This document shows positions 3,231 to 26,942 of a DNA stretch of 26,942 nt, piece by piece. The translations under genes and the position numbers were made by a program. The stretch comes from a virus (lineage: Duplodnaviria; Heunggongvirae; Uroviricota; Caudoviricetes), in IMG/VR virus record IMGVR_UViG_3300030616_000569; one strand, 5' to 3'. The notes beneath the pieces were generated by a model. The model made no database searches. It was not told the DNA's origin and was given only the letters and a program-made list of their open reading frames with translations. Each line of letters opens with the position of its first letter. The stretch's first letter is position 1.

Positions 3231-3617
3231 ATGGGCGAAGTAATAACGTCAAGATTGTGCCGAGTTTGTAATCAATACCATCGAAAAAACTCTGATATTT
3301 CTGGTGATTATGATGAAGAAGGTAAACTCCTTTCATATTGCCCACAATGTGGCAGTATGCATCCACCAAGACTTTGTGCGATTATTGATTTCAATCTTTC
3401 ACAAAGAAAGAGACATAACCTTGGCACATTGATTGCAAGAACACATGATCTTCCATACAGACAAATGCACAAAATAACATCAGGCATAAAGTTTGTTGAT
3501 GATAATGAATTCCCCAAAGTTTTTTCAAAGCACATCTCGGAGACATTTGATATTTCTTTTAGTAGAGAAGATGTCATAGAATATATTAAGAGGTCTGGGA
3601 ATATAATTAAAAGGTGA
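3231..3617 (+). CDS. Zn-finger-containing protein, possible regulator
   Basis: CRVC...CPQC pairs; soluble; first gene after the intergenic region. Confidence 0.65.
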   Translation: MGEVITSRLCRVCNQYHRKNSDISGDYDEEGKLLSYCPQCGSMHPPRLCAIIDFNLSQRKRHNLGTLIARTHDLPYRQMHKITSGIKFVDDNEFPKVFSKHISETFDISFSREDVIEYIKRSGNIIKR

Positions 3618-3621
3618 AACA

Positions 3622-4398
3622 ATGTTTGAAAACATGACAACCGAAATAATAATTGGTCTCGGTGGACTTGTCCTCGGTCTTATATTATTATTCGGTGCTG
3701 TATTTAGAAAGCAAGCAGGTTTAAAAAATCTGAATCCAATGTGGGCAGGTGTCATCGGTACACTTCTAATTGTGTTCGGTGGTATCGTCGGTTTATTGCC
3801 AATGATCCCTGAAGAAGGTGGAACCGTTGTAAATGTTGATGCTCCTGGTGTTACACTTACACAACCAACATTTTCATTGGATGTAACAAATGGAACAACT
3901 GGTCTTGGTAACACTACAACTGTTCAAGTAAATGAAGATGAAACAATGGCAACTGTTTTACTTGAAACTTGTGGTTCTGGTGGAAATCAACCACTTGCAG
4001 GTACTCATTTTGGTGTTAACTTTACTGTAGCTCCAATTCCTCCAAATGGTGCAACAGCAGATTCTCTAGCAACTGTATATTTCGAAACTGATTATTTGAT
4101 GAAGTTTAATGGTGAATATATACTTGCAGAATCTGATGGAACGTACTATGCAAACTGGTCATATGCAGGTGGAACAAGTGATGAAGCTCTAAAAGACTAT
4201 GCATCACAAATGACAATGCTTATGACTGAAGTTGGATACGCAGAAATTACTTATGAAATGGATAGTGGTTCTGCTGACAGATTCTCTGCTGAGCTAGATA
4301 CAATCGGTGATACTGGTAGCTGGGATATCGTATTCCACAACGAAGACTGGTCTTGGTCTGAAACATTTACTGTGACTTGGATATTAGTCGAACAATAA
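3622..4398 (+). CDS. Membrane protein with two N-terminal TM helices and a beta-rich acidic ectodomain; candidate major envelope/structural protein
   Basis: SD aggtga, two hydrophobic helices, followed by a terminator-like element; paralog of 4653-5174. Confidence 0.7.
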   Translation: MFENMTTEIIIGLGGLVLGLILLFGAVFRKQAGLKNLNPMWAGVIGTLLIVFGGIVGLLPMIPEEGGTVVNVDAPGVTLTQPTFSLDVTNGTTGLGNTTTVQVNEDETMATVLLETCGSGGNQPLAGTHFGVNFTVAPIPPNGATADSLATVYFETDYLMKFNGEYILAESDGTYYANWSYAGGTSDEALKDYASQMTMLMTEVGYAEITYEMDSGSADRFSAELDTIGDTGSWDIVFHNEDWSWSETFTVTWILVEQ

Positions 4399-4407
4399 AC
4401 ATAATAC

Positions 4408-4436
4408 GGGGATTTTCCCCACATTTATTTTTTTTA
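4408..4436 (+). terminator. Short GC hairpin plus T-tract terminator
   Basis: gggg-atttt-cccc then acatttatttttttt directly after stop 4398. Confidence 0.6.
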
Positions 4437-4468
4437 TATAATAAAAATCGTATCGTAATGAGTGAAAC

Positions 4469-4648
4469 ATGTTAAGAAAATATATAACACCAGTGTTGTT
4501 GTTTATAATCGCTTCTATCGGTGTTATACATCAATATATTGTTTCTGGTACAATCTTTAATTTCGATGATCTTCACCATGAAACATTTATAATGGCATTT
4601 ATAATTGCAGGTTTGGTGTTATTCATTGTCAAAAGAAAGTTGTATTAG
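4469..4648 (+). CDS. 59-aa two-TM membrane protein
   Basis: Hand-translated MLRKYITPVLLFIIASIGVIHQY...FIIAGLVLFIVKRKLY; fills the gap; gtga upstream. Confidence 0.7.
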   Translation: MLRKYITPVLLFIIASIGVIHQYIVSGTIFNFDDLHHETFIMAFIIAGLVLFIVKRKLY

Positions 4649-4652
4649 TGTA

Positions 4653-5174
4653 ATGATGCTGTTCGTTTTATTATTACTTTCTGGTTGTCTTCAGCAATCA
4701 ACCGTAAAAAGTGCTGAATTTGATACTCAGGTGAATACTGTACAAAACTCGAATTATGACTCTAATTTGAAACAGATAACAGTTATTGTGCAAACTGATG
4801 AAGATGATAATCTAATAGATTATAGAAATCCAATAATAAATTTTACATTTGTTATTTACCCACCACCAGGATCTTATGAGGATGATTATGCATATCTAAT
4901 TTTTTCAGCCCATGATTATGATCCACGAATATTTCGTGACTCAGATGGTATATATCAATTGATCTGGAAAGACGAAAATAGAGATACATTTCTCATCAGT
5001 GGTGAAAAAAGGTTAAAGATGCTTAATGCACCATATCTTGAGCTTGAGATGAAATTAAATCCATATCAGCTCGCTGAGATTGGTGATTCTTCACTTCAAA
5101 TCACATTTCATAATCTTGATGATTCCTGGAGTGATACATATGATGTGTTGTTTCTAGGAGTTGAAGTTGAATGA
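4653..5174 (+). CDS. Lipoprotein, paralog of the 3622-4398 ectodomain
   Basis: ATG 4653 gives MMLFVLLLLSG-C lipobox; co-linear motif matches to 3622-4398. Confidence 0.75.
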   Translation: MMLFVLLLLSGCLQQSTVKSAEFDTQVNTVQNSNYDSNLKQITVIVQTDEDDNLIDYRNPIINFTFVIYPPPGSYEDDYAYLIFSAHDYDPRIFRDSDGIYQLIWKDENRDTFLISGEKRLKMLNAPYLELEMKLNPYQLAEIGDSSLQITFHNLDDSWSDTYDVLFLGVEVE

Positions 5175-5281: not shown

Positions 5282-7624
5282 ATGGTTAGATCAAAGTTAT
5301 TTAGGTTAAGTGGAAAGAAAAAAGCTATAATTCCTATCGTGATAATATTAATGCTCATAATGGTTGCTTATTTTGTCCCGATCAGTGATTTTTTTTCTGT
5401 TACGCAACAAGAGGTAGAATCATATATAGACTCAAAGAATGATTTATCGCCATACGAATTGGATTTATTGAGTGAAATATTGCTTCCTGGTGGTATCTAT
5501 GAAGATCCTTCAATAATGGATGATGGTTATGTTGATAGTGATTATCCAAATAACAACTACAACGATAATTACTTATGTGGTGATGAATCAAAAGATATGT
5601 ATGTGAAAATTAATTTTGTTGGATTGTATCACTTTATAACAGAGAATGGTTATACATTTGATGAAGTTGTGAATCATATTGATCTTAAATTAAGATCATA
5701 TACTTCAACAACAACAAGATCATTTTATTTTCATAGCTGTTCTGATAGTTGGAACGAGGAGTCATTGACTTGGAATAATCAACCAACTGGAGATTATTAT
5801 CAGGGTTATCAAAGCGTTCAATCAGACGGTAGTTATTATGTTTATCAAATAACTGATATAGTAAAGAATAACTTTGAGAATGGTGATTGGATATGTTCTA
5901 TCCAGATGCTCTATGCTAGTGGTTTATTTGATGTTACATTTTCTTCTAAAGAATATACACATCCACCATTAGTTTATATTGATTCAAAAATGGAAATTAA
6001 TTCAGTTCCTTGGGTATTAACTGGAATACCAGTCAGTGGTGGATTTTCTACATATTTGGGTATAGACAGTGGTTATCGTATAAAAAAGAATACAGCTGTT
6101 CTTGACGTTAATGTTCCACCAGTCATATATGAAGGTGAATCATTTACGGTAGAGGTTGCTACTGGATACTTCACTGATTCAGTTGTTAAAATCGAGTTAT
6201 TAGATCCATCAGATACTGTTGTTGGTACTTATACTGGATCTGTACCTGAAGTTATTGTTTCAAATTGTCCACTACCACAAGGTGATGGAACTGTTCGTGT
6301 AACAGCAAGTCGTGCAGGTGAAAGTCTTGTTGCTACAAAACCAGTTACAGTAGCAGGTCTAGATCTCATTGTTGAACAAGATCCTTATTATGAAGCAGGA
6401 GAAACATTTTGGGTTGATGTGCATTTCAGTGACCCAACTATAAATAGACCAGTTACAATCGAGTTTTATCAAGGATCATTACTTGTAGCATCGTATGCTG
6501 GTACAATGCCAAGTGTACAAATATTGAACCCAATAATGACTGGTACTGTTGATATGGTTGTTACGACCACATATAGTGGTATTACATATGAAAAAACATT
6601 AACGATATCGTTTGATGAGATACAACTTGTTGTTGTGCATCCTGGGACATTCCAATATGGTCTTACAACACAGATACAAGTGTCTATATCAAATCATCCA
6701 GAGGTTTCAAATCCTGTACAAGTGACATTTTCGAAAGGCACTTCAATACTTGAGCAGTACAATGGTAATATGCCATTGATACAAATTGACTCTCCAAAAG
6801 TTCTTGGTGTTGCACAAATGAAAGTTGCTACATCATATATGGGAACGTCATATGTTCGTGTGTTTGATGTGTTTTTTGAAGGATATCCTATTGTTACAAC
6901 AGCACGTGCAAACTCATATGTCCAATATGAACACGAACCAGTTATATTCTTTGTAGATGTTCGTGATATTAATGGTGAATATCTTACACCCAAATATATT
7001 GCTGATATTATTCCGATATGCACATTATCTGGTGGCGAAGTGACAGAATCGTCATATGAGCATTTGGGTGATGGTACTTACAAGATAAGTTCTACAGTAG
7101 TTGGTGTTGGTAACTTTATTGGAAAACTGGCATTTAAGTATCTTGGAACAGCATTCGAGTCAGAGTTAATATCTATTAATATTGAAGAAAACGCACTTGC
7201 AATTTCTACAGCAGGAATTCCTTCATCGGCAATACGTTATGAATATTTCACTGGTGAAGTAGAGATATTTGATCCTAAAGGTGTTAAGATAGATCCTGAT
7301 AACCTTGAGATTGATGTGCATCTTCCAGATGGATCTACTATTGATTATATACCAATGAGTCAAATGAATAGAATGTCAGCTGGAAAATATTCATTCTCAT
7401 ATAGACCAACACAGCTTGAGAGATATACATTTGAGGTCACTGCAACAAAGACTGATGTCACAACAGCAACATCTAAAGCAACTGTGAATGTTTATGATGA
7501 TTCTGATATAGAACCAGATGATGATATTGTATCAATGATACTTGGTGTTATAATTAAATACATTTGGGTGTTTGTTATCATATTCATTGGTGTTATTATA
7601 CTGATATGGAAGTTTTTGAGGTGA
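5282..7624 (+). CDS. Large adhesin/spike-like protein: N-TM, DNRLRE/CBM96-like domain, Ig-like stalk repeats, C-terminal TM
   Basis: D.YV.SDYPNNNY...DSWNEESLTWNNQP motif; three tandem ~87-aa repeats (6104-6883); hydrophobic C-terminus ending WKFLR. Confidence 0.7.
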   Translation: MVRSKLFRLSGKKKAIIPIVIILMLIMVAYFVPISDFFSVTQQEVESYIDSKNDLSPYELDLLSEILLPGGIYEDPSIMDDGYVDSDYPNNNYNDNYLCGDESKDMYVKINFVGLYHFITENGYTFDEVVNHIDLKLRSYTSTTTRSFYFHSCSDSWNEESLTWNNQPTGDYYQGYQSVQSDGSYYVYQITDIVKNNFENGDWICSIQMLYASGLFDVTFSSKEYTHPPLVYIDSKMEINSVPWVLTGIPVSGGFSTYLGIDSGYRIKKNTAVLDVNVPPVIYEGESFTVEVATGYFTDSVVKIELLDPSDTVVGTYTGSVPEVIVSNCPLPQGDGTVRVTASRAGESLVATKPVTVAGLDLIVEQDPYYEAGETFWVDVHFSDPTINRPVTIEFYQGSLLVASYAGTMPSVQILNPIMTGTVDMVVTTTYSGITYEKTLTISFDEIQLVVVHPGTFQYGLTTQIQVSISNHPEVSNPVQVTFSKGTSILEQYNGNMPLIQIDSPKVLGVAQMKVATSYMGTSYVRVFDVFFEGYPIVTTARANSYVQYEHEPVIFFVDVRDINGEYLTPKYIADIIPICTLSGGEVTESSYEHLGDGTYKISSTVVGVGNFIGKLAFKYLGTAFESELISINIEENALAISTAGIPSSAIRYEYFTGEVEIFDPKGVKIDPDNLEIDVHLPDGSTIDYIPMSQMNRMSAGKYSFSYRPTQLERYTFEVTATKTDVTTATSKATVNVYDDSDIEPDDDIVSMILGVIIKYIWVFVIIFIGVIILIWKFLR

Positions 7625-7882: not shown

Positions 7883-8905
7883 ATGAAAAAGATGATTCTA
7901 TGCATAATTATGCTAATGCCAATTCTTGTTTCTTCTACAGCACTTGCATGGGGTCCAGCAACGCACACATATATTACAAATGAATTACTTGAAAATTATT
8001 CTAGTACAAATGCAATCCTTATGTTGTGTAACAAAAACCAAGAGTGTCGAGAGGCATTTATGGCAGGATCTGAAATACCTGACATAACTGTTGTTTATTA
8101 TTTCGAATCTGGTGGATCCAAGTATCGTGCAACACATAACTGGAACTTCCAACAGGACGTAATGTTACAGGCTGAAGAAGATCATGAAAAAGCATTTGCC
8201 TATGGTATTGCACAACACCTTATATCTGATTCAATAGCTCACCAAGATGTTGTCCCAACTGCAATTTCATCACAAGGAATACCAAATTGGTTGTTACATC
8301 CTCTACTTGAGCAAAAATATGATTCCTATCTGAAAGAGACACAACCAGAGATTGCTGAGCAATCGAAACATATGTTTGATGCTATCATTTATGGACCTCA
8401 TGGTGATAGATATATGGAAATGTGTCAAAATGCACTTGGTAGCACACTTGATGTAGAAGAACATGTCATAAAACTCGCAGCAGCATTTGATTCTTTCTAT
8501 AATCCAGATGGTGGTAATTTCCATCCTGAAGATGTTGGGATATTTGGTCTTTATCCAATTATATCAGGAATAGCAGATATGATGTCTCCATATACTTCAA
8601 TAGGTGGTGTAGATCAGATAGATAATGCATTATTTAAAACACTTCAACAAAATGTTAATATATATAACAACTGGGGTGCAAGACATGCATTAACACCTCA
8701 TGGTTTTGATGATCTAGAGGATGCTGAAGAAGAAGGTAATGTTGGTATATTTTCATTTCTATTCATGATATATATTATTTCAATATTTGTTATACCAGTC
8801 ATTGCTTATGTATATTTCAAAAAGATCATGGTACTTCCAATATCTCTAGGGATTATGATAGTTGGTTTGGTTTCATGGTTCTTCATGATTTATTTTTCAT
8901 TATGA
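7883..8905 (+). CDS. Zinc-dependent phospholipase C / P1 nuclease fold protein, secreted and C-terminally membrane-anchored
   Basis: Signal peptide then WGPATH at the mature N-terminus, GSEIPDI, ATHNW, YGIAQHLISDSIAH, HPLLEQKYD; two C-terminal TM helices. Confidence 0.8.
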   Translation: MKKMILCIIMLMPILVSSTALAWGPATHTYITNELLENYSSTNAILMLCNKNQECREAFMAGSEIPDITVVYYFESGGSKYRATHNWNFQQDVMLQAEEDHEKAFAYGIAQHLISDSIAHQDVVPTAISSQGIPNWLLHPLLEQKYDSYLKETQPEIAEQSKHMFDAIIYGPHGDRYMEMCQNALGSTLDVEEHVIKLAAAFDSFYNPDGGNFHPEDVGIFGLYPIISGIADMMSPYTSIGGVDQIDNALFKTLQQNVNIYNNWGARHALTPHGFDDLEDAEEEGNVGIFSFLFMIYIISIFVIPVIAYVYFKKIMVLPISLGIMIVGLVSWFFMIYFSL

Positions 8906-8931: not shown

Positions 8932-9087
8932 TTGACGAAACAAAAATCATTAAAATTTCATGATATGAAGACGCACAAATCTTTCAATTCTTCGAACTAT
9001 AATCATGTTAATCGTGGAAAAACAAAGTTTGCTGTAGCAAAAAATCCAAGTGGAAACGAATCTTGGAGAATAGTTGGAAAGAAATAA
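8932..9087 (+). CDS. 51-aa CC1-like (crenarchaeal chromatin protein 1) small basic DNA-binding protein
   Basis: TTG start 7 nt after aggtga; MTKQKSLKFHDMKTHKSFNSSNYNHVNRGKTKFAVAKNPSGNESWRIVGKK matches the recalled CC1 pattern LKF.D.K....F....Y...RG...FAVAK.P..G....R..GKK. Confidence 0.75.
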   Translation: MTKQKSLKFHDMKTHKSFNSSNYNHVNRGKTKFAVAKNPSGNESWRIVGKK

Positions 9088-9088
9088 C

Positions 9089-9736
9089 ATGCATAATTTC
9101 TTCTCGAATATCAATAATCGGATAGCAAAGACTTCGTTCATATTTATTCTTATTGTTATCGAGATATATTTCTTTATTAATGGTCGTGCACACTTTTCTG
9201 CATGGGATGAAACATATGGTCAGTTAATAACGATTTATCTTCTTATGGTCGTCGTGTTTCTATTGTGGTCTGGTAGAAAAACAAAGCAACAAATGAACAA
9301 ACCACTTAATGAATCGATAGGTGGATTTGTTGGCTTCTTCATTGCAACATATTTCTTTCTTGCAGCAGCAACGTATCTATCTGGTGACACTATATCTGTG
9401 ATGGCAAGGGAATTATTCTGGCCAACAGTAATTGTTCAGGTCTGTGTTGTTGCAACATCAGAAGAATTGATGTTTCGTGGTGTGTTATTAGAAAAATTCG
9501 GTATTATTGTATCATCAGTGTTATTTGCATTATGGCATGCTTATGCATATGGTGTAATGTATTATATGCCAGATGTTGTTGGTATAGAAACTATAGTAGC
9601 AATATTGCTCGCCTTTTGCATGGGTATAATACTTGCCTTTGTGGCAAAGAAATGGGGTCTATCATCAGCAATAGCTATCCATGCATGCTATAATTTATTT
9701 GTTTCGGGAGCATTTATAACATTTAGTATTATGTAA
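9089..9736 (+). CDS. CPBP/Abi (type II CAAX, Rce1-like) intramembrane glutamic protease
   Basis: SEELMFRG, SSVLFALWH and AIAIHACYN motifs in a multi-TM protein; ATG 9089 preferred. Confidence 0.9.
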   Translation: MHNFFSNINNRIAKTSFIFILIVIEIYFFINGRAHFSAWDETYGQLITIYLLMVVVFLLWSGRKTKQQMNKPLNESIGGFVGFFIATYFFLAAATYLSGDTISVMARELFWPTVIVQVCVVATSEELMFRGVLLEKFGIIVSSVLFALWHAYAYGVMYYMPDVVGIETIVAILLAFCMGIILAFVAKKWGLSSAIAIHACYNLFVSGAFITFSIM

Positions 9737-9746: not shown

Positions 9747-10400
9747 ATGAATAACGAAAATCGTGGTTGGTTTAATCATTCAAAAGAGCATTCTTTGGCT
9801 TCTCAAGGTATTCCTACAAAGAAATCAGATCCAAGAACGGAGACAAAAACAGTGGATACTAATGTTGTTAAGAAGACCAACAATTTGTCATTTGATAGAG
9901 AAACAGAGAGAGTGATGGAATTATTTGCTGATGTTAATCAAAAATATGAGATTTCACCATCAGTTAATAACAATGGTATAAAATTAAGTGAAGATGAATT
10001 ATTGAACATACTCAAATATTCTATACCAAATGGTTGTGGAACATTTAACAATGAAGAATTTGTTAAATTAGCTCAGTTATATGAACCAAAATGCAAATTT
10101 ATTATAAAACGTGATCCAGAGGACGGTGGTGTAATTATTTCTGTTTATGGTACACCACTGACACATCCAGGACAAATAAAAGAGTGGGTTAACTCTAGTT
10201 ATGTTACAACTGATGAAAACAATGTCTTTACTTATAAATGGACATCGATTGGTGTTATTAATAAAAACATAGATAAATCAGCAAAGCTATCACATGATGA
10301 TAGATTACTACTAGAATGGTCTGAAGAGGTCAAAACAAGGCAAACTGACTTATCTTTCCCAGACTGGATAAGGTCAGGTGAAATTGATGAAGAAAGGTAA
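9747..10400 (+). CDS. GW..RH.LA..GI-tagged protein 1, unknown cargo domain
   Basis: Tag GWFNHSKEHSLASQGI at 9765-9812; soluble. Confidence 0.75.
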   Translation: MNNENRGWFNHSKEHSLASQGIPTKKSDPRTETKTVDTNVVKKTNNLSFDRETERVMELFADVNQKYEISPSVNNNGIKLSEDELLNILKYSIPNGCGTFNNEEFVKLAQLYEPKCKFIIKRDPEDGGVIISVYGTPLTHPGQIKEWVNSSYVTTDENNVFTYKWTSIGVINKNIDKSAKLSHDDRLLLEWSEEVKTRQTDLSFPDWIRSGEIDEER

Positions 10401-11121
10401 AGGGTGGAGAGGTGAACCTTTTCGACATAGTTTGGCAGGACAGGGTATATCAACATATAGATTAGTCAGAGATAGACCAGATAAGAATAAACAAGATTTT
10501 GAATCACAAAAAAGATATGGTACAGTCACAAAACAACCATTATTTCCCACTTATAAAGGTGATTATAAAAACAGATATAAAAAACATCGTGTAGTTCTCA
10601 ATTATCCTGATAACATGAAAGAAGGTGACAGGTTTAATTACAATATGGAAATGTCTGATGAATCTCTTACACCAGAAGACAGACAGGAGATATATGACAG
10701 ATGGCAAAAATGGAAGGAGTGGCGAAGCGGGAAAGGTCACATTCATAGAATAATTTCAAATTTAGAGTTTGAAGATAATCCATATCGTCCATATTATGTG
10801 ACGAATTCTAATTACCCACCAGAAGGTTATAGGTGGGTTGATGATGAATCAGAAATCAAGGTTGCAGAAGGAAGACTTCTTGGCAAATTCTATCCTGATT
10901 TGACATATGAAGAATTTGATCAGTTTATGACATTTGATGAGTTCATGGATACAACTAAAGTTAGACCAACAAGAACTCGAAGCAGTACTAAAAGAAAAGT
11001 TGGCAAAAAGACACCTGGAAGAGAGGAAATGCAAGATATTTCAGAACAGCGTCTTTCTGCATATAGATCACATAAAGATAGAAGAATTGAAGAATTAGAA
11101 GAGAGAAGGAGAAGTAGATAA
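10387..11121 (+). CDS. Tagged protein 2, charged, unknown cargo
   Basis: SD ggtga 10377-10381 supports ATG 10387; tag GWRGEPFRHSLAGQGI at 10402-10449. Confidence 0.75.
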   Translation: MKKGKGWRGEPFRHSLAGQGISTYRLVRDRPDKNKQDFESQKRYGTVTKQPLFPTYKGDYKNRYKKHRVVLNYPDNMKEGDRFNYNMEMSDESLTPEDRQEIYDRWQKWKEWRSGKGHIHRIISNLEFEDNPYRPYYVTNSNYPPEGYRWVDDESEIKVAEGRLLGKFYPDLTYEEFDQFMTFDEFMDTTKVRPTRTRSSTKRKVGKKTPGREEMQDISEQRLSAYRSHKDRRIEELEERRRSR

Positions 11122-11123
11122 TT

Positions 11124-11483
11124 ATGTATCAACAACCAGTAATGCATATTGAGCGTGGTACAAGTAGATTAGTTGCATTGATGAATGGTCCAAGACTTAA
11201 TGTTGGGTTATTATTATCGTCAGTGATAATTTCTATGTTAATTGGAATAATAATTCTTGGTACCATGGGTCTTTCTGCATTCATAGGTGTAATTTGTATT
11301 ATTTATGCAGGTATAGCATTACTTTTAAATAGAGGTAAATTCTTGTCAGAAACAGTGATAATCATTCTTATAATTGGTGTAGCATTCTTGGTACTTCATT
11401 ACGTCGGTGTCGATATGATGGTAATAGATTTTCAGGCATTTGGACCGACAAATAAATTATATGAATTGTTCCATCAGAGGTGA
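11124..11483 (+). CDS. Multi-TM membrane protein
   Basis: ORF track, three hydrophobic helices. Confidence 0.75.
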   Translation: MYQQPVMHIERGTSRLVALMNGPRLNVGLLLSSVIISMLIGIIILGTMGLSAFIGVICIIYAGIALLLNRGKFLSETVIIILIIGVAFLVLHYVGVDMMVIDFQAFGPTNKLYELFHQR

Positions 11484-11488
11484 AACAT

Positions 11489-11731
11489 ATGTTTAAATTT
11501 AACAAAAGAACGCTAGTTTCTTCATTGACAGCAGGTTTTTTTATAACTCTGTTTACTGGATACTTTGTACTCGGTGGTACTGGTGAATATGGTGGTATAT
11601 TCTTAGGGTGGTATCCTCTTGATACTAGGTTGCCATTTCTAGGTGGTGAATTCATAATAAATGTTCTATTGTGGACTGCAATATCAAGTTTCATTATACA
11701 AGTATTCATAAAAAAGAGGATACCTTTTTGA
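11489..11731 (+). CDS. Two-TM membrane protein
   Basis: SD aggtga supports ATG 11489; hydrophobic ends. Confidence 0.7.
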   Translation: MFKFNKRTLVSSLTAGFFITLFTGYFVLGGTGEYGGIFLGWYPLDTRLPFLGGEFIINVLLWTAISSFIIQVFIKKRIPF

Positions 11732-11739
11732 GGTGAATT

Positions 11740-12363
11740 ATGAAAAATAATCATGCGATAGCTCCAATAATTGGTGTTATTATAATTGCAAGTGCAATCG
11801 GTGCAAGTGCTGGTAGTTATGTTATCTATGAAAATAACAAATCATATGAGATCGAACCAAACACAGTATTCGTACACAAAGATTATGGTAATGGTCTAGA
11901 TAATTCGAAAGAGACAACATCACAACCAGTGGTAACAGAATATGAGATTACGACTAATACAGCAATATCTAATATTCTTAGTTATATCGGAAGTGATACA
12001 ACTATAGATGTAGATAGTTATCGTGGGTGTATAGATAAATTAAATGTTAATGTATATTGTGTGAATGGTAAGACAATGGATAGTATAATTGACGACTATA
12101 AGACAAAGATAAATGAAGATGGGTATACAATCGAAATTGAACAAGATCGTGATAATTCAGGTTGGTCTGGGAAACTCATCTTTGCAAGAGGTAGTCTACA
12201 TGGTCGTCTTATTGTTGTTGCAAGTGGATCAGTGATAGAAAAAATATTTGGTTGTGATGTTCTTTTGATTACATCAAGTGCATTTCTAACTGATTATTAT
12301 TCTTGCCAACATTTGATTGAAGGACAATCTGAAGAACCAAATAATTGTTGTGGAGAGAGTTAA
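11740..12363 (+). CDS. N-terminally anchored alpha/beta surface protein, paralog of 23710-24237; possible class III signal peptide
   Basis: KNNHA-IAPIIGVIII N-terminus; shared motifs with 23710-24237. Confidence 0.7.
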   Translation: MKNNHAIAPIIGVIIIASAIGASAGSYVIYENNKSYEIEPNTVFVHKDYGNGLDNSKETTSQPVVTEYEITTNTAISNILSYIGSDTTIDVDSYRGCIDKLNVNVYCVNGKTMDSIIDDYKTKINEDGYTIEIEQDRDNSGWSGKLIFARGSLHGRLIVVASGSVIEKIFGCDVLLITSSAFLTDYYSCQHLIEGQSEEPNNCCGES

Positions 12364-12364
12364 T

Positions 12365-12637: not shown

Positions 12638-12641
12638 TAGT

Positions 12642-12854: not shown

Positions 12855-12861
12855 TAACTTA

Positions 12862-12993: not shown

Positions 12994-12999
12994 TTAAAT

Positions 13000-13343: not shown

Positions 13344-13352
13344 GGTGAAAAA

Positions 13353-16487: not shown

Positions 16488-16490
16488 TGT

Positions 16491-17724: not shown

Positions 17725-17729
17725 TAATA

Positions 17730-17963: not shown

Positions 17964-17972
17964 GGTGAAAAA

Positions 17973-19496
17973 ATGAATAAAAAAATATTAGTAGCAATTG
18001 CACTCACTATAGTTGCAATATTAATTGTAGTACGAATTATACCAAGTCTAGATGTATCACAACCGATAGGTGATGAGTTATTTACTATGAATGGCCAAAA
18101 TCATCCTGATGGAAGAAAGTTTTTGGCTCAGTCATTTGTACCAGATGAAAATACAATTGCAACAATTGTTGTGTACTCAACATATGAGTCACCATTCCCA
18201 ATCCCTATACGATGTGGTATCACAACAAATGTAAATCATTATTTTGATGACGGTGACGGTGCATTTCTTGCAGTTTCTAATGGTGTTTCTACATCTGGAA
18301 TGATAATGTTTCCGTTTGATAATGTTCCTGTTTATAAGGATGCTTCTTATTACTTTGTCCTAATGCTTGGTGATGATGATACAGTAGAAATAAAATATAG
18401 TGATGAAAATCCATATTCTGCTGGTAAGATGTATCTTGTAACAACAACACTATCTGTATATAATGATCGTGATCTGAGATTTATTATTGATACAGAATAT
18501 TCTGGTGATCCTAACCAAAAACCAATTGCGACGTTTGATTGGTCTGGTGTACAGTCAGTCGGTGAACAAATATTGTTTGATGCGTCTGATAGTTATGATC
18601 CTGATGGAACAATAGAGGAATATAGATGGAATATTGGGTCAGATTCATGGACTTCGTGGACTGACGACCCAAAAATAATGTATACATTTACCTCTGAAGG
18701 ATCTTATGATGTTTGGTTAGATGTTAAGGATAATGATGGATTATATGATCAATGGTTAGAGACTATTGAAATATCATCTAGTGCACCACCATCATACAGC
18801 GTGCATGTAACAACAATGGAACATATCGATTATGGCGGATCGATAATACCTGATGCAACTGTAAATCTAGTTGGTCCAATCACAAAATCAGGTAAATCAG
18901 ATAGTAGCGGTTTTATTACATTTTCTAACTGTCCTCCTGGTGAATATACAGTAAGTGTTACAAAAGCAGATTACGAAAGATGGTCTGGAACAAGCCAGTT
19001 GTCTGATATTGATCTTGTATTTGTCTCTGAGAACATTCCAACAAGTGTAACACCACCAGATGGATATAATGTTGATGTATTTGTAAAGGATAGTTCTGGC
19101 AATGTCATTAGCAACGCTCTTGTATTACTACATTCAGAGTTAATAGAATATAGCACAAAGACGAATGAATATGGTAGTGCCAAATTCACTGAGATTAATG
19201 GTGGATCATATAATATTGTAGTAACACATAGTTCATTTGATGATTATACAAAGAGTGTTATAATTGATTCTAATACGCACATATCTGTTGAATTATCTAG
19301 TGATCCATCAATATTATCAGGGTTGAATATATTAGCTGCTGGTATATCTATTGGTGTTGGTATATTCATAGTAATAATTGCATTAGTGCCATCATTTGCA
19401 TTGTCGCATAAATATCGCATACTTATGATAATATTTGGTGCAGCACTTGCATCTGTTTTGTATGTTCTACTTGATATGTTAGGTGTGATGTTATAA
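17973..19496 (+). CDS. Surface protein with PKD domain, two carboxypeptidase-regulatory-like domains, N-TM and C-terminal TM hairpin
   Basis: NQKPIATF...FDASDSYDPDGTIEEYRW...YTFTSEGSYDVWLDVKDNDG PKD signature. Confidence 0.85.
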   Translation: MNKKILVAIALTIVAILIVVRIIPSLDVSQPIGDELFTMNGQNHPDGRKFLAQSFVPDENTIATIVVYSTYESPFPIPIRCGITTNVNHYFDDGDGAFLAVSNGVSTSGMIMFPFDNVPVYKDASYYFVLMLGDDDTVEIKYSDENPYSAGKMYLVTTTLSVYNDRDLRFIIDTEYSGDPNQKPIATFDWSGVQSVGEQILFDASDSYDPDGTIEEYRWNIGSDSWTSWTDDPKIMYTFTSEGSYDVWLDVKDNDGLYDQWLETIEISSSAPPSYSVHVTTMEHIDYGGSIIPDATVNLVGPITKSGKSDSSGFITFSNCPPGEYTVSVTKADYERWSGTSQLSDIDLVFVSENIPTSVTPPDGYNVDVFVKDSSGNVISNALVLLHSELIEYSTKTNEYGSAKFTEINGGSYNIVVTHSSFDDYTKSVIIDSNTHISVELSSDPSILSGLNILAAGISIGVGIFIVIIALVPSFALSHKYRILMIIFGAALASVLYVLLDMLGVML

Positions 19497-20017
19497 TGCC
19501 TATGCCAGTGTATGCTCCACACGCATCACAAGCTCGTGGTCTCACACGATCACAAGGTGTCAGAATAGTTGTATTTATTATGATAGCTGCAATAATGATA
19601 TCAGCAGTTGTTATATTCGTCAGCGGTGATTTCGGTATAGGATATAAATTTACTGTCTCTGGTGATGTACGTCTTGGTGGTCTTGGTGACGGATCGTGGT
19701 ATATAGAAAATATACAGATATCTGAACCAATAGCAGATAAAAGTATACTTGAGTTTGGATTCGGTCTACTTGATACATCTAGTATTGATGTTGTTTGTGA
19801 ACTACAAGGAAAATCAGTTACTGATGGCCTTGGTACATTTTCAACAATTGGCGGAACAAAACACTTTACATGTGAATTCAGGCATATATTACCAGGATAT
19901 TATTCTGGAGAGATATATGTTTATGAAAATATGTGTGGTTTAATTCCAATAAATTGTGACACAGTGGAACAAGCAAATGAACCATTCAGTATTGATATTG
20001 ATATAATAGGTGATTAA
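19496..20017 (+). CDS. Single-TM beta-rich surface protein
   Basis: TAATG coupling, N-proximal TM. Confidence 0.7.
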   Translation: MPMPVYAPHASQARGLTRSQGVRIVVFIMIAAIMISAVVIFVSGDFGIGYKFTVSGDVRLGGLGDGSWYIENIQISEPIADKSILEFGFGLLDTSSIDVVCELQGKSVTDGLGTFSTIGGTKHFTCEFRHILPGYYSGEIYVYENMCGLIPINCDTVEQANEPFSIDIDIIGD

Positions 20018-20019
20018 AA

Positions 20020-21975
20020 ATGAAAAAGGTAATAATACCAATAATATTGATTATCCTTGCAGTGCTTATTGTTAGTGGTGCATATCTTAATCTAAGAACA
20101 TTTGATATGGTAGATGGACAAGTTATCCATTATGATTCACAACCAACTGATCCAGTGATTTGGTATGGACCAGTACCACAGGGATTTAAACATTATTGTT
20201 TTGGTAATCTAGTTAAGGATACCATAAATCCAACTGGTGAATTAGTGAAAGATCTCAATATTGTATCCTCATGGTCTTCAGATGGTATGAGTATGTCAAT
20301 ATCTATTAATCCTGGTTCATATAGTGTCGGTTGTGATAAAGTATTTCCACTTGTTGGACCAAATCCACATACAACAAAGTGGTGGTATGAATTAACGTTT
20401 TATGATGGTGGAACAGGACAAAAAACAGTTCTTGCTGATGAAAGTGGTCTTCGTGATTCCCCATCTATGATAACTGATGTTCAATTTTTAACATTTGGAT
20501 TTAATGATTGGGTAGGTAGTTGGACAGGTTATGAGTTTATGCCAGTTAGCAGTGATGTTTTTATACTACCATGTGAACACAGTGATGGTTGGTATGTTGG
20601 TGATGTTGTAGAAACTATAGACAATGATGATGATCCAGAAGAGTGGCTCGATGCTATATCGAAACCAGTCACATTCAAGTTACTTGGTCCAGTTGATGGA
20701 ATCCTAAAGATAGAATTAAAAACTAAATTGTTTTGGTGGGATACACCAGATGCTAAAAAAACATATCATTGTAATGAAGTGGCTTGGATAACTGATTGGG
20801 TACAAATCTCACGTGGAGAATGTGCTATATCTATAGATCCAAGTCCTGATGCATATAGACCTACTATATTTGAAGAGGGTGAAACAGTTAGTATAAACAT
20901 TCAAACAGATTATGCTGGAAATACAGTTTCATCTGTTGGTCAATGGCGTGTAACTATATATAACCCAGATGGAATTGCAATGGGTGATCCTGATGATGAT
21001 ATTATTGGTGATGGTGATATTGAATTGATACATCCTGATGGTTCAAGAACGGATGGTCTTTTCTATGTTGATGATCTTGCAGGTGGTGGTGTCGGTGGTT
21101 TCCAATGGTATACTGTAAGATGGATAATTCCAGAGGATATTTCTCTTGATTATACAAAAAAGGATTGGGAGATAAAAATAGAGAATACAATTCAAGCAAA
21201 AAAAACAGATGATTTTATCATAACTGTCCTTGGTGGTCGTGATGATGGACCATTAAATCCATTTGTTGAGATAACAAATAAAGATAGTGAAGATTATACA
21301 AAACATGTTGAATGTCTTGCAGAAGGTAATCCTGATGGAACAGGTGAAGTATCATACTTTACACTTCAGGCAACCTCGAATGGAATAAAATTCTTTGAGC
21401 AGACATGGACAGCACATTCTTCGTATTCTACAAATGCATATACTGCATCTGGTGATATACCAATAACAAATGGTGTCATACGTGTGTTCATGAGGGCTTA
21501 TGATAAAAACAATATGCCGTCTGCAAGAGTAGAAGATAGTTTTAATCATGATCCTGATGGTACATTAGGATGTTTAGTAGATATATACACGAAATACGGT
21601 GATGATACACCAATCCCAGGTGTAACGATAACACTGAATGATGATGTGTCTGAAACATATTCTACTGATGGTCAAGGTCATGTTGAAATAATTGTACCAA
21701 AAGGAAATAGAGTAAAAATATGCGCTGAGCACGATGGCGATGTTATATGTGCAAACCCGAGAATTACAACTAATGGTCAAGTTGTTAATTTGTATTTTGG
21801 GTTTTCAACAATGATGATAATATCAATTGCAATTGGTATAATTATTATGTCACTTTGTATTATTGCATTTATTATGCTCCACATTTCTATACCTTGGAAA
21901 ATATTGATAATGTTCATTGGTGGTATTGTATCCCTATTCATTTATATAATACTAAATGGATACTTGTATTTGTAG
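20020..21975 (+). CDS. 651-aa surface protein, N-TM/signal and C-terminal TM hairpin; candidate spike
   Basis: Large acidic beta-rich ectodomain with about nine Cys; no family recognised except a membrane-proximal prealbumin-like domain. Confidence 0.7.
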   Translation: MKKVIIPIILIILAVLIVSGAYLNLRTFDMVDGQVIHYDSQPTDPVIWYGPVPQGFKHYCFGNLVKDTINPTGELVKDLNIVSSWSSDGMSMSISINPGSYSVGCDKVFPLVGPNPHTTKWWYELTFYDGGTGQKTVLADESGLRDSPSMITDVQFLTFGFNDWVGSWTGYEFMPVSSDVFILPCEHSDGWYVGDVVETIDNDDDPEEWLDAISKPVTFKLLGPVDGILKIELKTKLFWWDTPDAKKTYHCNEVAWITDWVQISRGECAISIDPSPDAYRPTIFEEGETVSINIQTDYAGNTVSSVGQWRVTIYNPDGIAMGDPDDDIIGDGDIELIHPDGSRTDGLFYVDDLAGGGVGGFQWYTVRWIIPEDISLDYTKKDWEIKIENTIQAKKTDDFIITVLGGRDDGPLNPFVEITNKDSEDYTKHVECLAEGNPDGTGEVSYFTLQATSNGIKFFEQTWTAHSSYSTNAYTASGDIPITNGVIRVFMRAYDKNNMPSARVEDSFNHDPDGTLGCLVDIYTKYGDDTPIPGVTITLNDDVSETYSTDGQGHVEIIVPKGNRVKICAEHDGDVICANPRITTNGQVVNLYFGFSTMMIISIAIGIIIMSLCIIAFIMLHISIPWKILIMFIGGIVSLFIYIILNGYLYL

Positions 21976-21976
21976 G

Positions 21977-22600
21977 ATGTCTATGAAATCATTATTTGTG
22001 GTATATTTGATGATCATCGTGTCATTTTCTTGTGGTTGTATAAATCTAGAGACCAATATTAATGAAAGTTACACGAACTATCCGTTGTATTATGAATTAG
22101 ATGAAATATCTACACTATTACCTGATACAGCGAAGATTCCTTGTAATGTTTCATTGATGATAACATATCCAGATGGTAAACACTATGGGATATATCGTGT
22201 ATATGCAACATCTAGGAATGTTGTGTTTCATCCAGTAAATCATACGCTGTTTCAAACAGGTATTTACACTGCAAAATATGAAGTATCTAATGTGATTAAA
22301 TACGATTATTTTTTTGCAGGGTCTATAGATTCCAGAATTGTGTTTAACCCTACCAAATTTGAGGTAAATGACGATAAGGTTTCCCTAAAGGTAACAAATA
22401 ACGGCAAAATAGATGGGTTTCTATACCTTACCCTTTATACAAAGAAACCTTTTGTATTAGGGTCTAAAATAGTCTATAACAATTATTATGTAAATGACAT
22501 TATATTTGTCAAAAATGGACATTTCTATGAATTTGATCATAATGTGAATTCAGATGAAATGGTAGTATTGATAAATGGAGAATTATATGAATTGAGGTGA
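21977..22600 (+). CDS. Lipoprotein
   Basis: ATG 21977/21983; hydrophobic stretch then SCG-C lipobox-like motif. Confidence 0.7.
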   Translation: MSMKSLFVVYLMIIVSFSCGCINLETNINESYTNYPLYYELDEISTLLPDTAKIPCNVSLMITYPDGKHYGIYRVYATSRNVVFHPVNHTLFQTGIYTAKYEVSNVIKYDYFFAGSIDSRIVFNPTKFEVNDDKVSLKVTNNGKIDGFLYLTLYTKKPFVLGSKIVYNNYYVNDIIFVKNGHFYEFDHNVNSDEMVVLINGELYELR

Positions 22601-22604
22601 TGAT

Positions 22605-23201
22605 ATGACAAAACCGTATAAAAAAGATATGAAGGGTAAGCAATTCAACAAATATGTAGATTCAAAACTCAATGAAGATACAACCAAATCAATTTCTGTA
22701 CCAAAACGATCTTATGGTATGAATGTTAAAACTGCAAATCGTGGGAAACAGGGTTGGTATGATGAGTCGTATAGACATAAGCTTGCTGCTCTTGGTATTT
22801 CTAGTGCTATAGATAAACGAAATGAAGTTAAGACAGCAACAACTAGACATTATCAAGGATCAAGACATTTACAAGGTAGTGAGAAATTTGATGATGAACC
22901 ACCAACTGAACTTGTTTCTATCTATATAGATGAACTTCATGATTCACTGAATGAAAATAACAGAAGATATGAGTCTGGTGAAATATCATCGGATGAACAT
23001 GAGAGAGCCGAAAATGTTATTGTTGCCACTGCGAATTTTATACATGAAAGAAGAGGTTCAATCTCAGATGATGATTTAACAGATGTTATGAGACAATCAC
23101 GTGGTGCACAAAGAGGATCAAATGAGATGATGTTCTATTATAATATAGGTAAAATAGAGAAAGGTGCAGACTACACATATAATACAAAGGGTTGGGTATG
23201 A
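22605..23201 (+). CDS. Tagged protein 5 (tag at residue 50), helical acidic cargo
   Basis: Tag GWYDESYRHKLAALGI at 22752-22799. Confidence 0.75.
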   Translation: MTKPYKKDMKGKQFNKYVDSKLNEDTTKSISVPKRSYGMNVKTANRGKQGWYDESYRHKLAALGISSAIDKRNEVKTATTRHYQGSRHLQGSEKFDDEPPTELVSIYIDELHDSLNENNRRYESGEISSDEHERAENVIVATANFIHERRGSISDDDLTDVMRQSRGAQRGSNEMMFYYNIGKIEKGADYTYNTKGWV

Positions 23202-23710
23202 AGAAGATATATGCATATTTTCTTCTATTGTTCATATTATCTATTATTTCCACATCTGTCATAGAAGCTGATGAGTCATTTGACGTGAAGGTAAAAGTTC
23301 TCAATGATGATGAGCCATTGTACAATGTGTTTGTGTCAATAGGTAATGAATCAAGTCTTACAAATGATAATGGTATTGCTAGATTATCTGTTCCTGGTGG
23401 AACATATACACTTTCAATTATATCAGTAGATTTTGGCAAAATAATAGATGAAGTTATAATAATATCAGATGATTATTATGAAGTCGATTTTTCATATACT
23501 GATACTGTAAATGAAGAGTCGGATTCTTTCACTGTGAATCCATACATAATATTTGTTATATTATTAGTTATAATATTTGCGATACTTATAGGATCTCCTA
23601 CACAAACGAATTTTATTAAAAAGTATCAGGAGAGTCCTTGGACATATATTGCAGCAGGTATAGTGTTGTTTATAGTGATATATGTGTTAACAATAAATGG
23701 TGGTCTATAA
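23198..23710 (+). CDS. Secreted prealbumin-like domain protein with two C-terminal TM helices
   Basis: ATGA overlap supports ATG 23198; LTNDNGIARLSVPGGTYTL motif. Confidence 0.75.
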   Translation: MKKIYAYFLLLFILSIISTSVIEADESFDVKVKVLNDDEPLYNVFVSIGNESSLTNDNGIARLSVPGGTYTLSIISVDFGKIIDEVIIISDDYYEVDFSYTDTVNEESDSFTVNPYIIFVILLVIIFAILIGSPTQTNFIKKYQESPWTYIAAGIVLFIVIYVLTINGGL

Positions 23711-24237
23711 TGAAAAAAATGAAAAATAGTACAATGGCAGTTGTTGCAATTGTAATACTTGCATCAGCTGTTGGTGCAGCATATTATCTTGGGTACATTG
23801 ATATTCCAGATCTTGGAATAAATCTTTTGTCAGGTGATTTAACACCTTCAGGTGCCAATAAACTTCAAGTTTCTTCAGGTGACATATACACTGCACTTGA
23901 TACAATATCAACAAAGGAACTTAATCTAACAGATGTAGAACCATATTTTTCTACTCTAAATATGGGAATGTGGTGTTCACCAATGTCTGCATTACCTCTT
24001 GCAGAATGGTATGATGCTGAATTAACTGCTGATGGGTGGGCACCAAGTGAATCGGGTACAAGATCTGGCAGTGATTGGATCGCATATATCAGGACTTGGA
24101 CTCGTGGTGATCAGGCATATTGTATCATTGTTGGTGAAGGTGCATCCGTAAATACAATATATGGTTGCACGACTGTATATATTATGGGACACGGATCTAT
24201 CGGTACAGTTGAACAATTTTTGGTATACTTCAGTTAG
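23710..24237 (+). CDS. N-anchored surface protein, paralog of 11740-12363
   Basis: TAATG overlap supports ATG 23710; shared motifs. Confidence 0.7.
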   Translation: MKKMKNSTMAVVAIVILASAVGAAYYLGYIDIPDLGINLLSGDLTPSGANKLQVSSGDIYTALDTISTKELNLTDVEPYFSTLNMGMWCSPMSALPLAEWYDAELTADGWAPSESGTRSGSDWIAYIRTWTRGDQAYCIIVGEGASVNTIYGCTTVYIMGHGSIGTVEQFLVYFS

Positions 24238-24247
24238 TGGTGATAAT

Positions 24248-24556
24248 ATGATAGGTATGTTGTTATCAATGAAACTTGTCGGAAAGGAAAGTTGGTTAAG
24301 ATCAATTATCTTTTGGGCAGTTGTCTTTGTGTTAGGTATTGTCACAGGAATATTTACTGTATTGGTTCCATTCTTGTCTCTAGTAGTCGGTGCACTGATA
24401 GTTATTTTACTAGCTCATTATTGGTACAAAAAAAATCTTTTATTATCTGTCGTTATATTTGCAGTCGGGTATGTCATTGACATTGTTATAATGTACCTTC
24501 TTGTTTTACTAGGACTCTACTCTGCTATGGCACTATCAGTATTTGAAATGATATAA
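24248..24556 (+). CDS. 102-aa multi-TM membrane protein
   Basis: SD ggtga 24239-24243 supports ATG 24248. Confidence 0.75.
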   Translation: MIGMLLSMKLVGKESWLRSIIFWAVVFVLGIVTGIFTVLVPFLSLVVGALIVILLAHYWYKKNLLLSVVIFAVGYVIDIVIMYLLVLLGLYSAMALSVFEMI

Positions 24557-24583
24557 TCAGATATGTATTATCAGTGATAAAAA

Positions 24584-25177
24584 ATGACAAAATCCAATAA
24601 AGGTTGGCGCAAAGAACCTCGACGACACAGTTTATCTGCTAGAGGTATTAAGAATAAACCAAAAGGAACACCAAGTAAGGAACTTCCATCTGAAGAGGAA
24701 TATGTCAGTAATCATATGAGACATGTTCAAGAAATCCAGGAACAAAAAGAACAACTTGCAAATTCAGATGATGAGTGTTATTTTATTGAAAGTGTGTCAA
24801 GTCTTCCAGATAATATTGGTGGATTTCATCTTGTTGATGGACCATTCACTTATGATAACGCAAAAGAAATAGAGGATTCTTCTTTATTTCCAGGTATGTG
24901 GAAGGTTATCTCTCGATCTGATGCAATAGATAAGTATCACATATCGAAGGACTACTGGATTCCAATTGAAGAGTCTGCATACATTGCAGCACGACAGGGT
25001 GCTGAAGATATGTATGATGATATGGTTTTTCATGAAGAACAGCGCATCGGGATGGGTTTATCATTGGAAGAGTATCAGGATCTAAGAGAGGAGGATCGTG
25101 AATGGTATATCAGTGAGCGTGACAAAATAGCTGAAGAAATAAAGAAAAAAGATGATATGAGAGGAATGAAAAGATGA
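24584..25177 (+). CDS. Tagged protein 6, acidic unknown cargo
   Basis: Tag GWRKEPRRHSLSARGI at 24602-24649. Confidence 0.75.
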   Translation: MTKSNKGWRKEPRRHSLSARGIKNKPKGTPSKELPSEEEYVSNHMRHVQEIQEQKEQLANSDDECYFIESVSSLPDNIGGFHLVDGPFTYDNAKEIEDSSLFPGMWKVISRSDAIDKYHISKDYWIPIEESAYIAARQGAEDMYDDMVFHEEQRIGMGLSLEEYQDLREEDREWYISERDKIAEEIKKKDDMRGMKR

Positions 25178-25722
25178 CACGTGGGTGGTACAACGAGCCT
25201 CGACGTCACTCTTTAGCAAGTCGTGGTATCTCTACGAACAATTATACATATATACCAAGTAAACTCGAGAAATTAGCAAGAGAAAAATGGTCTGTCAGAG
25301 ATTCATTCTGTGAAGAATTAAGTGAATTTATATTAAGTGATGGTAAAATATTGTCTATTGTCGATGACGACGAAAACACATATAGCCATTGCCATGTTTC
25401 TGAAGCGTGGACTGACGTTGAAAAGAGAGATGATGACAAATTTTATATTGAAAACCCAGAATTCAGCGATAACGAAATGAATAGATTTTTAGATGATAGT
25501 GGTGCAATACGTGTCCAAATCTGTAATCACGGTCCAAACGAATTTAATTATTATATACACGCAAACAAAAAACCGACAGAAGTGCAAATTAATTTGATAA
25601 TTGAAGAAGTGGAAAAATATGATTTTGATGAGATTCATTTTCTCTATAGAGATGGAACAAGGGATGTTATAAAAAATCCAAGACCAATTGATATTCAGAG
25701 GTGGGTGAGCAAGTATGACTAA
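25174..25722 (+). CDS. Tagged protein 7, cargo with ILSDG...H...GAIR...PT..Q pattern
   Basis: Tag GWYNEPRRHSLASRGI at 25183-25230; ATGA overlap. Confidence 0.75.
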   Translation: MTRGWYNEPRRHSLASRGISTNNYTYIPSKLEKLAREKWSVRDSFCEELSEFILSDGKILSIVDDDENTYSHCHVSEAWTDVEKRDDDKFYIENPEFSDNEMNRFLDDSGAIRVQICNHGPNEFNYYIHANKKPTEVQINLIIEEVEKYDFDEIHFLYRDGTRDVIKNPRPIDIQRWVSKYD

Positions 25723-26227
25723 AGGCTGGCACCGTGAACCTTACCGTCACAGCCTCGCATCACGTGGTTTCAGAACTAATACTGAAACACGTACATATTA
25801 TCCAGAAAGAGCATCGCATGAAGCATATTCAAATGTAAATAAAGAAACGATTGATTCGTATGCATATGAATCTGTGAAGTTGTTGAATGACCTTGGATTA
25901 AGAACATGGTCATCTTGTTCTTCACATCCAGACAGTGGGTATTATGAAGCAATGATATCTTATACTCACAAAGATGGTTATGAATATATTGAAGAAGCAA
26001 TGAAAAGAGCGGGATGGTCAGTGCAAAAACCAATTAGACTTATGTCAGTGTATGATAAAGATTCTTTAGAAAATGGAACATTCATTATGCCAGATAATGT
26101 GTACATAAATACTAATTATGCTAGAGGATGGGAGAATCAATGGCGTTTTTCTGCTGATATAAGAACAAATACTGAAATGCATGAGTTATGGGATAATACT
26201 GAACGTGAGTTATTAGGATTAATGTGA
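25715..26227 (+). CDS. Tagged protein 8, TYW3/Taw3-like motif cargo
   Basis: Tag GWHREPYRHSLASRGF at 25724-25771; ID...SVKLLNDLGLRTWSSCSSH matches the D...v..lN..G..T.SSC motif. Confidence 0.7.
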   Translation: MTKGWHREPYRHSLASRGFRTNTETRTYYPERASHEAYSNVNKETIDSYAYESVKLLNDLGLRTWSSCSSHPDSGYYEAMISYTHKDGYEYIEEAMKRAGWSVQKPIRLMSVYDKDSLENGTFIMPDNVYINTNYARGWENQWRFSADIRTNTEMHELWDNTERELLGLM

Positions 26228-26231
26228 TAAC

Positions 26232-26579
26232 ATGTCTAATGGTTGGTTTAGAGAAAGTAAAAGACACAGTCTTGCACGTCGAGGTATTACTTCAAGGAAA
26301 ACACCGATAAAAACTCCACTTCATGGTGGTATTGCTGAGTATAGAAAACCAGCTGATTTTAATCCCAGTGATCTTGATAAAGGCATTGATATTGAAATGG
26401 AACACACTGATGATCCAGAGATTGCTGCTCGAATAGCAATGGACCATCTTGAAGAGTATCCAGAATACTACAAATATCTTCCAAAGATGGAACGGAAACT
26501 TGAGAAAAGGGAGTTAAGACAGGCGAAACGAATACAAAAGAAGCGTGACAAGAAGAAGAAAAAGAAACAAAGAAGATGA
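26232..26579 (+). CDS. Tagged protein 9, DUF5661-like cargo
   Basis: Tag GWFRESKRHSLARRGI at 26241-26288; GIDIEMEHTDDPEIAARIAMDHLEEYPEYY signature; poly-Lys tail. Confidence 0.8.
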   Translation: MSNGWFRESKRHSLARRGITSRKTPIKTPLHGGIAEYRKPADFNPSDLDKGIDIEMEHTDDPEIAARIAMDHLEEYPEYYKYLPKMERKLEKRELRQAKRIQKKRDKKKKKKQRR

Positions 26580-26583
26580 TAAA

Positions 26584-26942
26584 ATAACAAATGACAACCG
26601 TGGTTGGCACAATGAGTCAAAACGTCATGCTCTGGCCTCTAAAGGAATTAAGACCAAACGTGACATAACGAATACAGAATATAAAAAACTCTATCCGAAA
26701 TCTCACTGGGAACTAGATTCTGATCATGATGGTGTCAAAAACAAAGACGATTGCTATCCATTCGACAAAGATCGCCAACATACTGGTTTAAAAAAAGAGC
26801 AGAATTTTCAGGAGCTTGATGGTATTGTTTTCTATGATATATCTGACAATCATTTTATTCAGTTGCGTAATGTTGATGATAAGTATGCATATTTTGGACC
26901 TGGGTCAGAATTCTATAATGATGCAAAACATCCACCATATGA
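26584..26942 (+). CDS. Tagged protein 10 (runs off the window end; start appears to be ATA)
   Basis: Hand-translated open frame (I/M)TNDNRGWHNESKRHALASKGIKT..., tag at 26602-26649, TSP3-like DSDHDGVKNKDDCYPFD; no in-frame ATG upstream. Confidence 0.65.
   Translation, partial: MTNDNRGWHNESKRHALASKGIKTKRDITNTEYKKLYPKSHWELDSDHDGVKNKDDCYPFDKDRQHTGLKKEQNFQELDGIVFYDISDNHFIQLRNVDDKYAYFGPGSEFYNDAKHPPY

Follow-up and report, generated by a model that had tools for sequence, protein, structure and literature searches.

What kind of particle is built by a viral contig that carries a long run of membrane-protein genes and no recognizable head or tail gene? The question is raised by a 26,942-nt stretch of DNA from the IMG/VR virus record IMGVR_UViG_3300030616_000569 (the window, throughout), most of which an initial annotation, made from the letters alone, had taken for the structural module of a probable enveloped archaeal virus. 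The window is a mismatch-free part of a 98,148-bp metagenome contig that is incomplete, with one end falling inside the gene for a family B polymerase (PolB). We read it together with 4.5 kb upstream and 8.5 kb downstream – 40 kb of the contig in all. We conclude, with a probability of about 0.6, that the window encodes the particle-building functions of a large, enveloped, non-tailed archaeal virus (genome of at least 98 kb) from an undescribed lineage.

Gene content of the membrane module

Between 3622 and the end of the window lie 38 genes, all on the plus strand (plus-strand genes cover 97% of the bases of the window as a whole). Twenty-five of the 38 (66%) encode a hydrophobic segment, in line with the initial annotation, which had counted ~26 of 40 genes after base 3622 (65%) as encoding membrane, lipobox or sorting-tail proteins. 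By comparison, 2 of the 13 genes in the adjoining replication block do so (Fisher p=0.003 vs the module), and the enrichment has a binomial p=6e-6 against an assumed background of 30%. Of the 13 soluble proteins of the module, ten have a common tag at the N-terminus and three are small and basic (genes 8932, 12862 and 16023, named, like others below, by their first base). The membrane module proper begins at 3622 and not at 3231, where it had been placed: the gene at 3231..3617 (plus strand) encodes a soluble, CxxC Zn-finger-like protein that is always found immediately 5′ of the 3622 gene and has homologs in L084, L087, L088 and L091, four of the related loci that we collected.

Scans against Pfam, PHROGs and NCBIfam matched two enzymes, a phospholipase C and a CPBP protease, besides an HNH motif and adhesin-type domains (CBM96, PKD, TSP3 and carboxypeptidase-regulatory-like). 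Across 42 window proteins, the matches (the 25 top families listed for Pfam and for NCBIfam and all 14 PHROGs) included no family of capsid, portal, terminase or tail proteins, which bears out the first impression that such motifs are unrecognizable here. HK97 capsid, portal and terminase genes, by which a member of the Caudoviricetes would be known, were not found in the window plus its 13 kb of flank, nor were head-tail genes found in 30 kb of a 69.6-kb relative (JAPOGW010000103.1) or in the related contig L099 as read. The flanks hold neither capsid, terminase nor housekeeping genes; what they contain is a replication block of viral type and a continuation of the module. As for the lipobox and PGF-CTERM proteins also named at the outset, lipobox-like motifs appear at 4650 and 21977, and PGF-like tails are visible at 13353 and 16491, but no PGF-CTERM model matched; Heimdall/Loki-CTERM models score below cut-off at these two tails, and no sorting-signal cut-off was reached.

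Gene order is conserved among relatives. The series PolB–XPF–RFC–nuclease–RFC–helicase–3231–3622–4650–CPBP is kept, wholly or partly, in L084, L087, L088 and L091/L092, while L087, L091/L092 and L093 retain parts of a block at 17428–22600. No counterpart of the large adhesins at 5282, 7883, 13353 and 16491 was found in L084, L087, L088, L091/L092 or L093. The module thus consists of a small core and exchangeable surface genes. The many adhesins that the initial annotation placed on the particle are there, but among the 25 membrane genes many are variable accessories and do not form a constant structural core.

The 3622 protein and the N-terminal tag

The first gene of the module (3622..4398, plus strand) encodes our best candidate for the major envelope protein. 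Its predicted structure, from a 74-sequence alignment (pLDDT 91.5), combines two membrane helices, arranged as a hairpin (residues 7-27 and 39-61), with an Ig-like beta-sandwich (residues ~79-258). The best fold matches of the model are Ig-like domains (Z up to 9.4, root-mean-square deviation 2.8, 114 residues aligned); this fold is widespread and reveals nothing of function. No capsid protein, jelly-roll or other, was among the listed fold matches of this model. The family comprises 80 clusters at the 50% cluster level, none carrying a name, and the protein had no match among sequenced phages. A three-copy complex prediction scored 0.14 and counts neither way.

Two neighbouring features accompany the gene. 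A G+C-rich hairpin followed by a T-tract (4407..4436, plus strand) is a probable terminator, and a like hairpin and T-run are present in five of six relatives checked. Beyond it, the gene at 4650..5174 (plus strand) encodes a lipoprotein-like paralogue of the 3622 Ig domain (BLASTP 30% over 129 residues, E value 1e-9) that lies alongside the 3622 homolog in four relatives. A further core gene (9089..9736, plus strand) encodes a CPBP (Rce1-like) intramembrane protease (PF02517, E value 1.6e-13). This gene lies one or two genes 3′ of the 3622 homolog in L085, L087, L088, L089, L091 and L100, two of which have no adjoining polymerase block; in the window, four variable genes sit between the two. 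We regard the 3622 protein as the best candidate for an abundant particle protein because its gene is conserved, in lead position and flanked by a terminator.

Archaeal pilins were considered as relatives of the 3622 protein and set aside, the sequence matches (E values 0.28-0.87) not being significant. Separately, several N-termini look by eye like pilin-type signal peptides.

Ten soluble proteins encoded within 9747..26940 (plus strand) share, by alignment, the N-terminal tag GWxxESxRHSLAxxGI. Their genes, all on the plus strand, start at 9747, 10387, 15337, 15684, 22605, 24584, 25174, 25715, 26232 and 26545. Tag and membrane segment are mutually exclusive: across the non-redundant proteins of all loci collected, a membrane segment occurs in 0/208 tagged vs 213/566 untagged proteins. 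The only DNA repeats in the window are the tag codons and start-site look-alikes. An HNH-like protein that is tagged in the window (15684-16016) has an untagged homolog at L091:15328-15600, which shows that the tag comes and goes as a unit. We read it as an address label, optional in use, for soluble cargo, whose destination we infer below.

Two further loci bear on such N-termini. At L085:4498-5776, the CPBP gene is followed by three soluble genes whose products have another basic motif (QQKAMFA-like) in common at the N-terminus; these may form a second tag family that takes up the same position. A row of proteins of 500-700 residues at L075:512-14547 has tag-like N-termini; these proteins are far above the usual size of tagged proteins.

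Nature of the element

The gene content points to a particle bounded by a membrane envelope and not by a protein capsid, with proteins that, judged from their sequences, resemble those of no known virus shell. In the virus that we propose, the 3622 protein would be produced in large amounts from a short transcript that stops at the terminator, and would coat the envelope through its membrane hairpin, the Ig domain facing outward, and the linked CPBP protease would mature envelope proteins. Host binding would fall to the conserved Ig-stalk block together with fast-exchanged adhesins. The basic tag may send many unrelated soluble proteins to the particle lumen, through binding to DNA or to the tails of membrane proteins. 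An ATPase block outside the window would power genome packaging or extrusion, and particles would leave by budding without lysis. RFC, XPF and the sorting tails suggest a host among the archaea, probably of sediment; Thermoplasmatota and Asgard are guesses at its group. The PolB proteins of close relatives are RNA-primed and find their best matches, at 22-25% identity, in the PolBs of tailed haloviruses, so the replicon looks virus-like.

Among contigs with a 3622-family gene, L099 (33% GC) also speaks for such a virus: it encodes a repeat fibre that is anchored and rich in sequons, a gene block with a P-loop ATPase at its end, a small recombinase-like gene and an island of glycan enzymes. A tag-sharing genome supplies a view of a complete element. 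G001 is recorded as a complete circular virus of 74,350 bp and has 25 tags; it matched none of two terminase models, one portal model and one HK97 capsid model, all of which were positive in control genomes. The nearest matches of its ATPase are in the spindle-shaped haloviruses LSV-48N (E value 2e-26) and BLv25, and a profile of the spindle-virus AAA-type ATPase matched G001 with 99% probability (E value 5e-20). The G001 ATPase, used as a query, returned no protein of our own contig.

Several points weigh against an enveloped virus. The element is known as sequence, and the part read covers 40 of the ~98 kb of its own contig. G001 has no 3622 homolog, which makes it a stand-in in tag and layout only: it backs the general layout and not the gene list of the 3622 clade. 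The tag is dispensable, being absent from 30 kb of the close relative L091/L092. In L099, the 3622-family member has another N-terminus and is placed elsewhere, so that not every member of the family leads the module. The L099 ATPase matches enveloped-virus ATPases weakly (20% probability against VP8 of HRPV-1, 23% against the spindle-type profile) and had no match among sequenced phages. No fusogen (entry protein) or known capsid protein, including those of enveloped viruses, was detected. The membrane-bound particle, possibly of a new family, put forward in the initial annotation is favoured by flanks and a complete tag-sharing genome devoid of head-tail genes, but falls short in these respects.

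The searches for such proteins have limits of their own. Among window proteins, the hydrophobic two-helix spindle capsid reached a best probability of 3% (His1 vs BLv25 gave 97.5%, although the same test missed a candidate from LSV-48N), and VP3/VP4 profiles, built from two sequences and of low sensitivity, matched none of 1434 proteins. The absence of these proteins is unproven because the profiles are shallow, divergent members can escape and, for VP3/VP4, the genome was partly read. For fusexins (Fsx1/HAP2-like), PF10699 was not found in G001/G002, and none was among the matches of the 5282 protein or of the 20020 protein, whose N-terminus is poorly modelled.

Known membrane-type viruses offer partial likenesses. 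ANME-1 spindle-shaped viruses (Pletoitzamnavirus and the tepeuvirus PBV144) combine an RNA-primed PolB with a membrane-type particle at up to 72.6 kb (PMC9894754). With these, which were compared by description, and with LSV-48N, His1 and BLv25, the element shares a structural arm of membrane proteins, next to an enzymatic arm that includes an RNA-primed PolB, and the spindle-type ATPase recurs in G001; the element here is larger than the 72.6 kb cited as the ANME-1 maximum. A handful of membrane genes, the number first ascribed to known enveloped and spindle-shaped viruses, is too low for His1, which has eight transmembrane-annotated genes among ORF20-28. We know of no description, in spindle-shaped viruses, of an Ig-bearing envelope protein candidate or of tagged soluble proteins. 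Pleolipoviridae and Thalassapleoviridae (HRPV-1, HHPV-1, AvPV1) have 7-17 kb genomes and a hallmark VP4 fusogen (PMC10919331). The proposed likeness to them lies in a lipid envelope, membrane structural proteins, an NTPase and the lack of a capsid, whereas the genome here is at least 98 kb and the conserved pleolipovirus NTPase was not found in the window. The element most likely works like enveloped viruses or apHPV plasmid vesicles, yet fits none of these groups.

The latter comparison leads to a different account, in which the locus is part of a large plasmid-like element that puts its proteins on the host surface and is passed on by contact between cells or in vesicles that it encodes itself, much like pR1SE and the apHPV plasmids; its ATPase would recruit DNA and its tag would mark transferred effectors. 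Both are mobile DNA rich in membrane and surface proteins, with a protease and an ATPase but no recognized capsid; no fusogen is recognized here either, adhesin, cohesin/dockerin and S-layer-like domains are many, and apHPV cores likewise hold PKD/S-layer-like proteins beside their protease and ATPase (PMC10818511). Those plasmids, however, are haloarchaeal, have 58-65% GC and share ten core genes that include ORF6 and an S8 protease (PMC10818511), whereas the element here has 33% GC, a CPBP protease and a PolB-RFC replisome. The virus-type PolB, the dense single-strand layout and the recording of G001 as a complete virus with a spindle-type ATPase also speak against a plasmid, and no S8 protease or conjugation family was among the listed matches of the window scans. 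We consider this account unlikely, though its boundary with an enveloped virus is partly a matter of definition.

A tailed virus (Caudoviricetes) of the magrovirus or HGTV-1 kind, with head-tail genes in unread or unassembled DNA and a surface module that remodels the host surface or blocks superinfection, seems to us improbable. A PolB and a clamp loader at ~100 kb are the magrovirus pattern (PMC5434244), nucleases are a further likeness, the best PolB matches are tailed haloviruses and the contig stops inside PolB. Magroviruses and their like, however, carry a major capsid protein, portal, protease and terminase, none of which was found here; head-tail genes were absent from our 40 kb, from 30 kb of the 69.6-kb relative, from L099 as read and from the complete G001. 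More than 30 kb of surface genes would also be unusual for a tailed virus. Finally, a surface-protein island on an ordinary or reduced archaeal chromosome is very improbable: cells, too, have RFC subunits, XPF and S-layer-like domains, but the 40 kb lack ribosomal, metabolic and other housekeeping genes, nearly all of the window is coding on one strand, and relatives on metagenome contigs show the same viral-type order.

Returning to the enveloped virus, we propose more tentatively, at somewhat short of even odds, that it represents a new group of family level or higher: a vesicle coated by hairpin/Ig proteins that a self-encoded intramembrane protease matures, with tens of exchangeable adhesins and tag-addressed, tegument-like cargo. 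Literature searches returned no description of such a group. If it exists, capsid-less virions would extend from ~10-kb to ~100-kb genomes, and the tag would provide a testable sorting signal for protein loading into archaeal vesicles. Because sediments are searched for viruses largely through capsid and terminase markers, large archaeal viruses wrapped in membrane are easily overlooked; the 3622 family together with CPBP is a concrete marker for them. The 1566 protein and alignments of 3622, CPBP and PolB had no match in the viral collection, where relatives were recovered by the tag only.

Remaining genes of the window and its relatives

The upstream flank holds the end of PolB, XPF, an HD protein, a small RFC subunit and a PD-(D/E)xK nuclease. 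The replication block ends in the window with an RFC large-subunit-like clamp loader (769..1569, plus strand), assigned by family scans, and a probable replicative helicase or primase-associated ATPase with a C-terminal helix-turn-helix (1566..2894, plus strand), which has weak PHROG primase matches. The latter gene is conserved at 42-69% in relatives, and a DUF3987 gene takes its position in L100. At 2891-2992, a 33-residue CxxC micro-ORF overlaps its stop codon; a gene of like size is there in L084. Scans of the window for tRNA genes and Rfam families gave no match.

Within the module (all genes on the plus strand), the variable gene at 5282..7624, absent from the syntenic L087, L088 and L091, encodes a 780-residue adhesin with a signal, a CBM96/DNRLRE head, an Ig-like stalk and a C-terminal anchor. 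It is followed by a variable, membrane-anchored, Zn-dependent phospholipase C-like enzyme (7883..8905; PF00882, E value 1.9e-11) and by a basic protein of 51 residues (8932..9087; isoelectric point 10.6), possibly a nucleoprotein, that has no meaningful match in PDB or Pfam. Small proteins with one to three transmembrane segments and an anchored protein (11740, a paralogue of 23710) occupy 11124..13343; 11124, 11740, 12642 and 13131 have homologs in L064 or L087. Variable surface proteins at 13353..17435, with PGF-like tails (13353 and 16491) or TSP3 repeats (14138), are interspersed with tagged and basic proteins. The conserved adhesin/stalk block (17428..22600), whose order recurs in L091/L092 and, judged from gene sizes and Pfam, in L093, encodes three-transmembrane-segment proteins, a PKD protein (17973), a 173-residue anchored protein, a 651-residue multi-Ig protein (20020) and a lipoprotein-like protein (21977). 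Only the C-terminal half of the 20020 protein is modelled confidently, as FnIII plus transthyretin-like domains, with the N-terminal 270 residues unmodelled, and a role as fusogen is unsupported. Hydrophobic segments mark three more membrane proteins (23198, 23710 and 24248) at 23198..24556.

The same pattern goes on in the downstream flank, with further tagged proteins, a dockerin-like protein, a cohesin protein, a cysteine peptidase-like surface protein and the start of a 1345-residue anchored protein. Immediately beyond the window end (L002:10242-11340), the membrane-anchored dockerin-like and cohesin genes stand side by side, an arrangement kept at L092:14823-15924; the pair could possibly form a self-assembling surface scaffold on a virus-like element.

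Other tag-bearing elements differ in their large membrane proteins. Directly 5′ of the tag array, the G001 clade has a conserved core of its own, made up of 807-residue and 1030-residue membrane proteins, a three-transmembrane-segment protein and a 192-residue anchored protein (L004:11965-17973, L003:386-964), unrelated to the 3622 family and candidates for spike and envelope proteins. Contigs L011, L082 and L083, in a WOR-3 bacterial metagenome-assembled genome, are close to G001 and carry ~20 tagged genes and the ATPase. A WOR-3 host was rejected: the sole genome-collection match sits in that bin, which we take as probable mis-binning. The third tag-bearing genome, a 61-kb linear IMG/VR record (L008, L010, L079-L081), gave no terminase, portal or capsid match and encodes different large membrane proteins.

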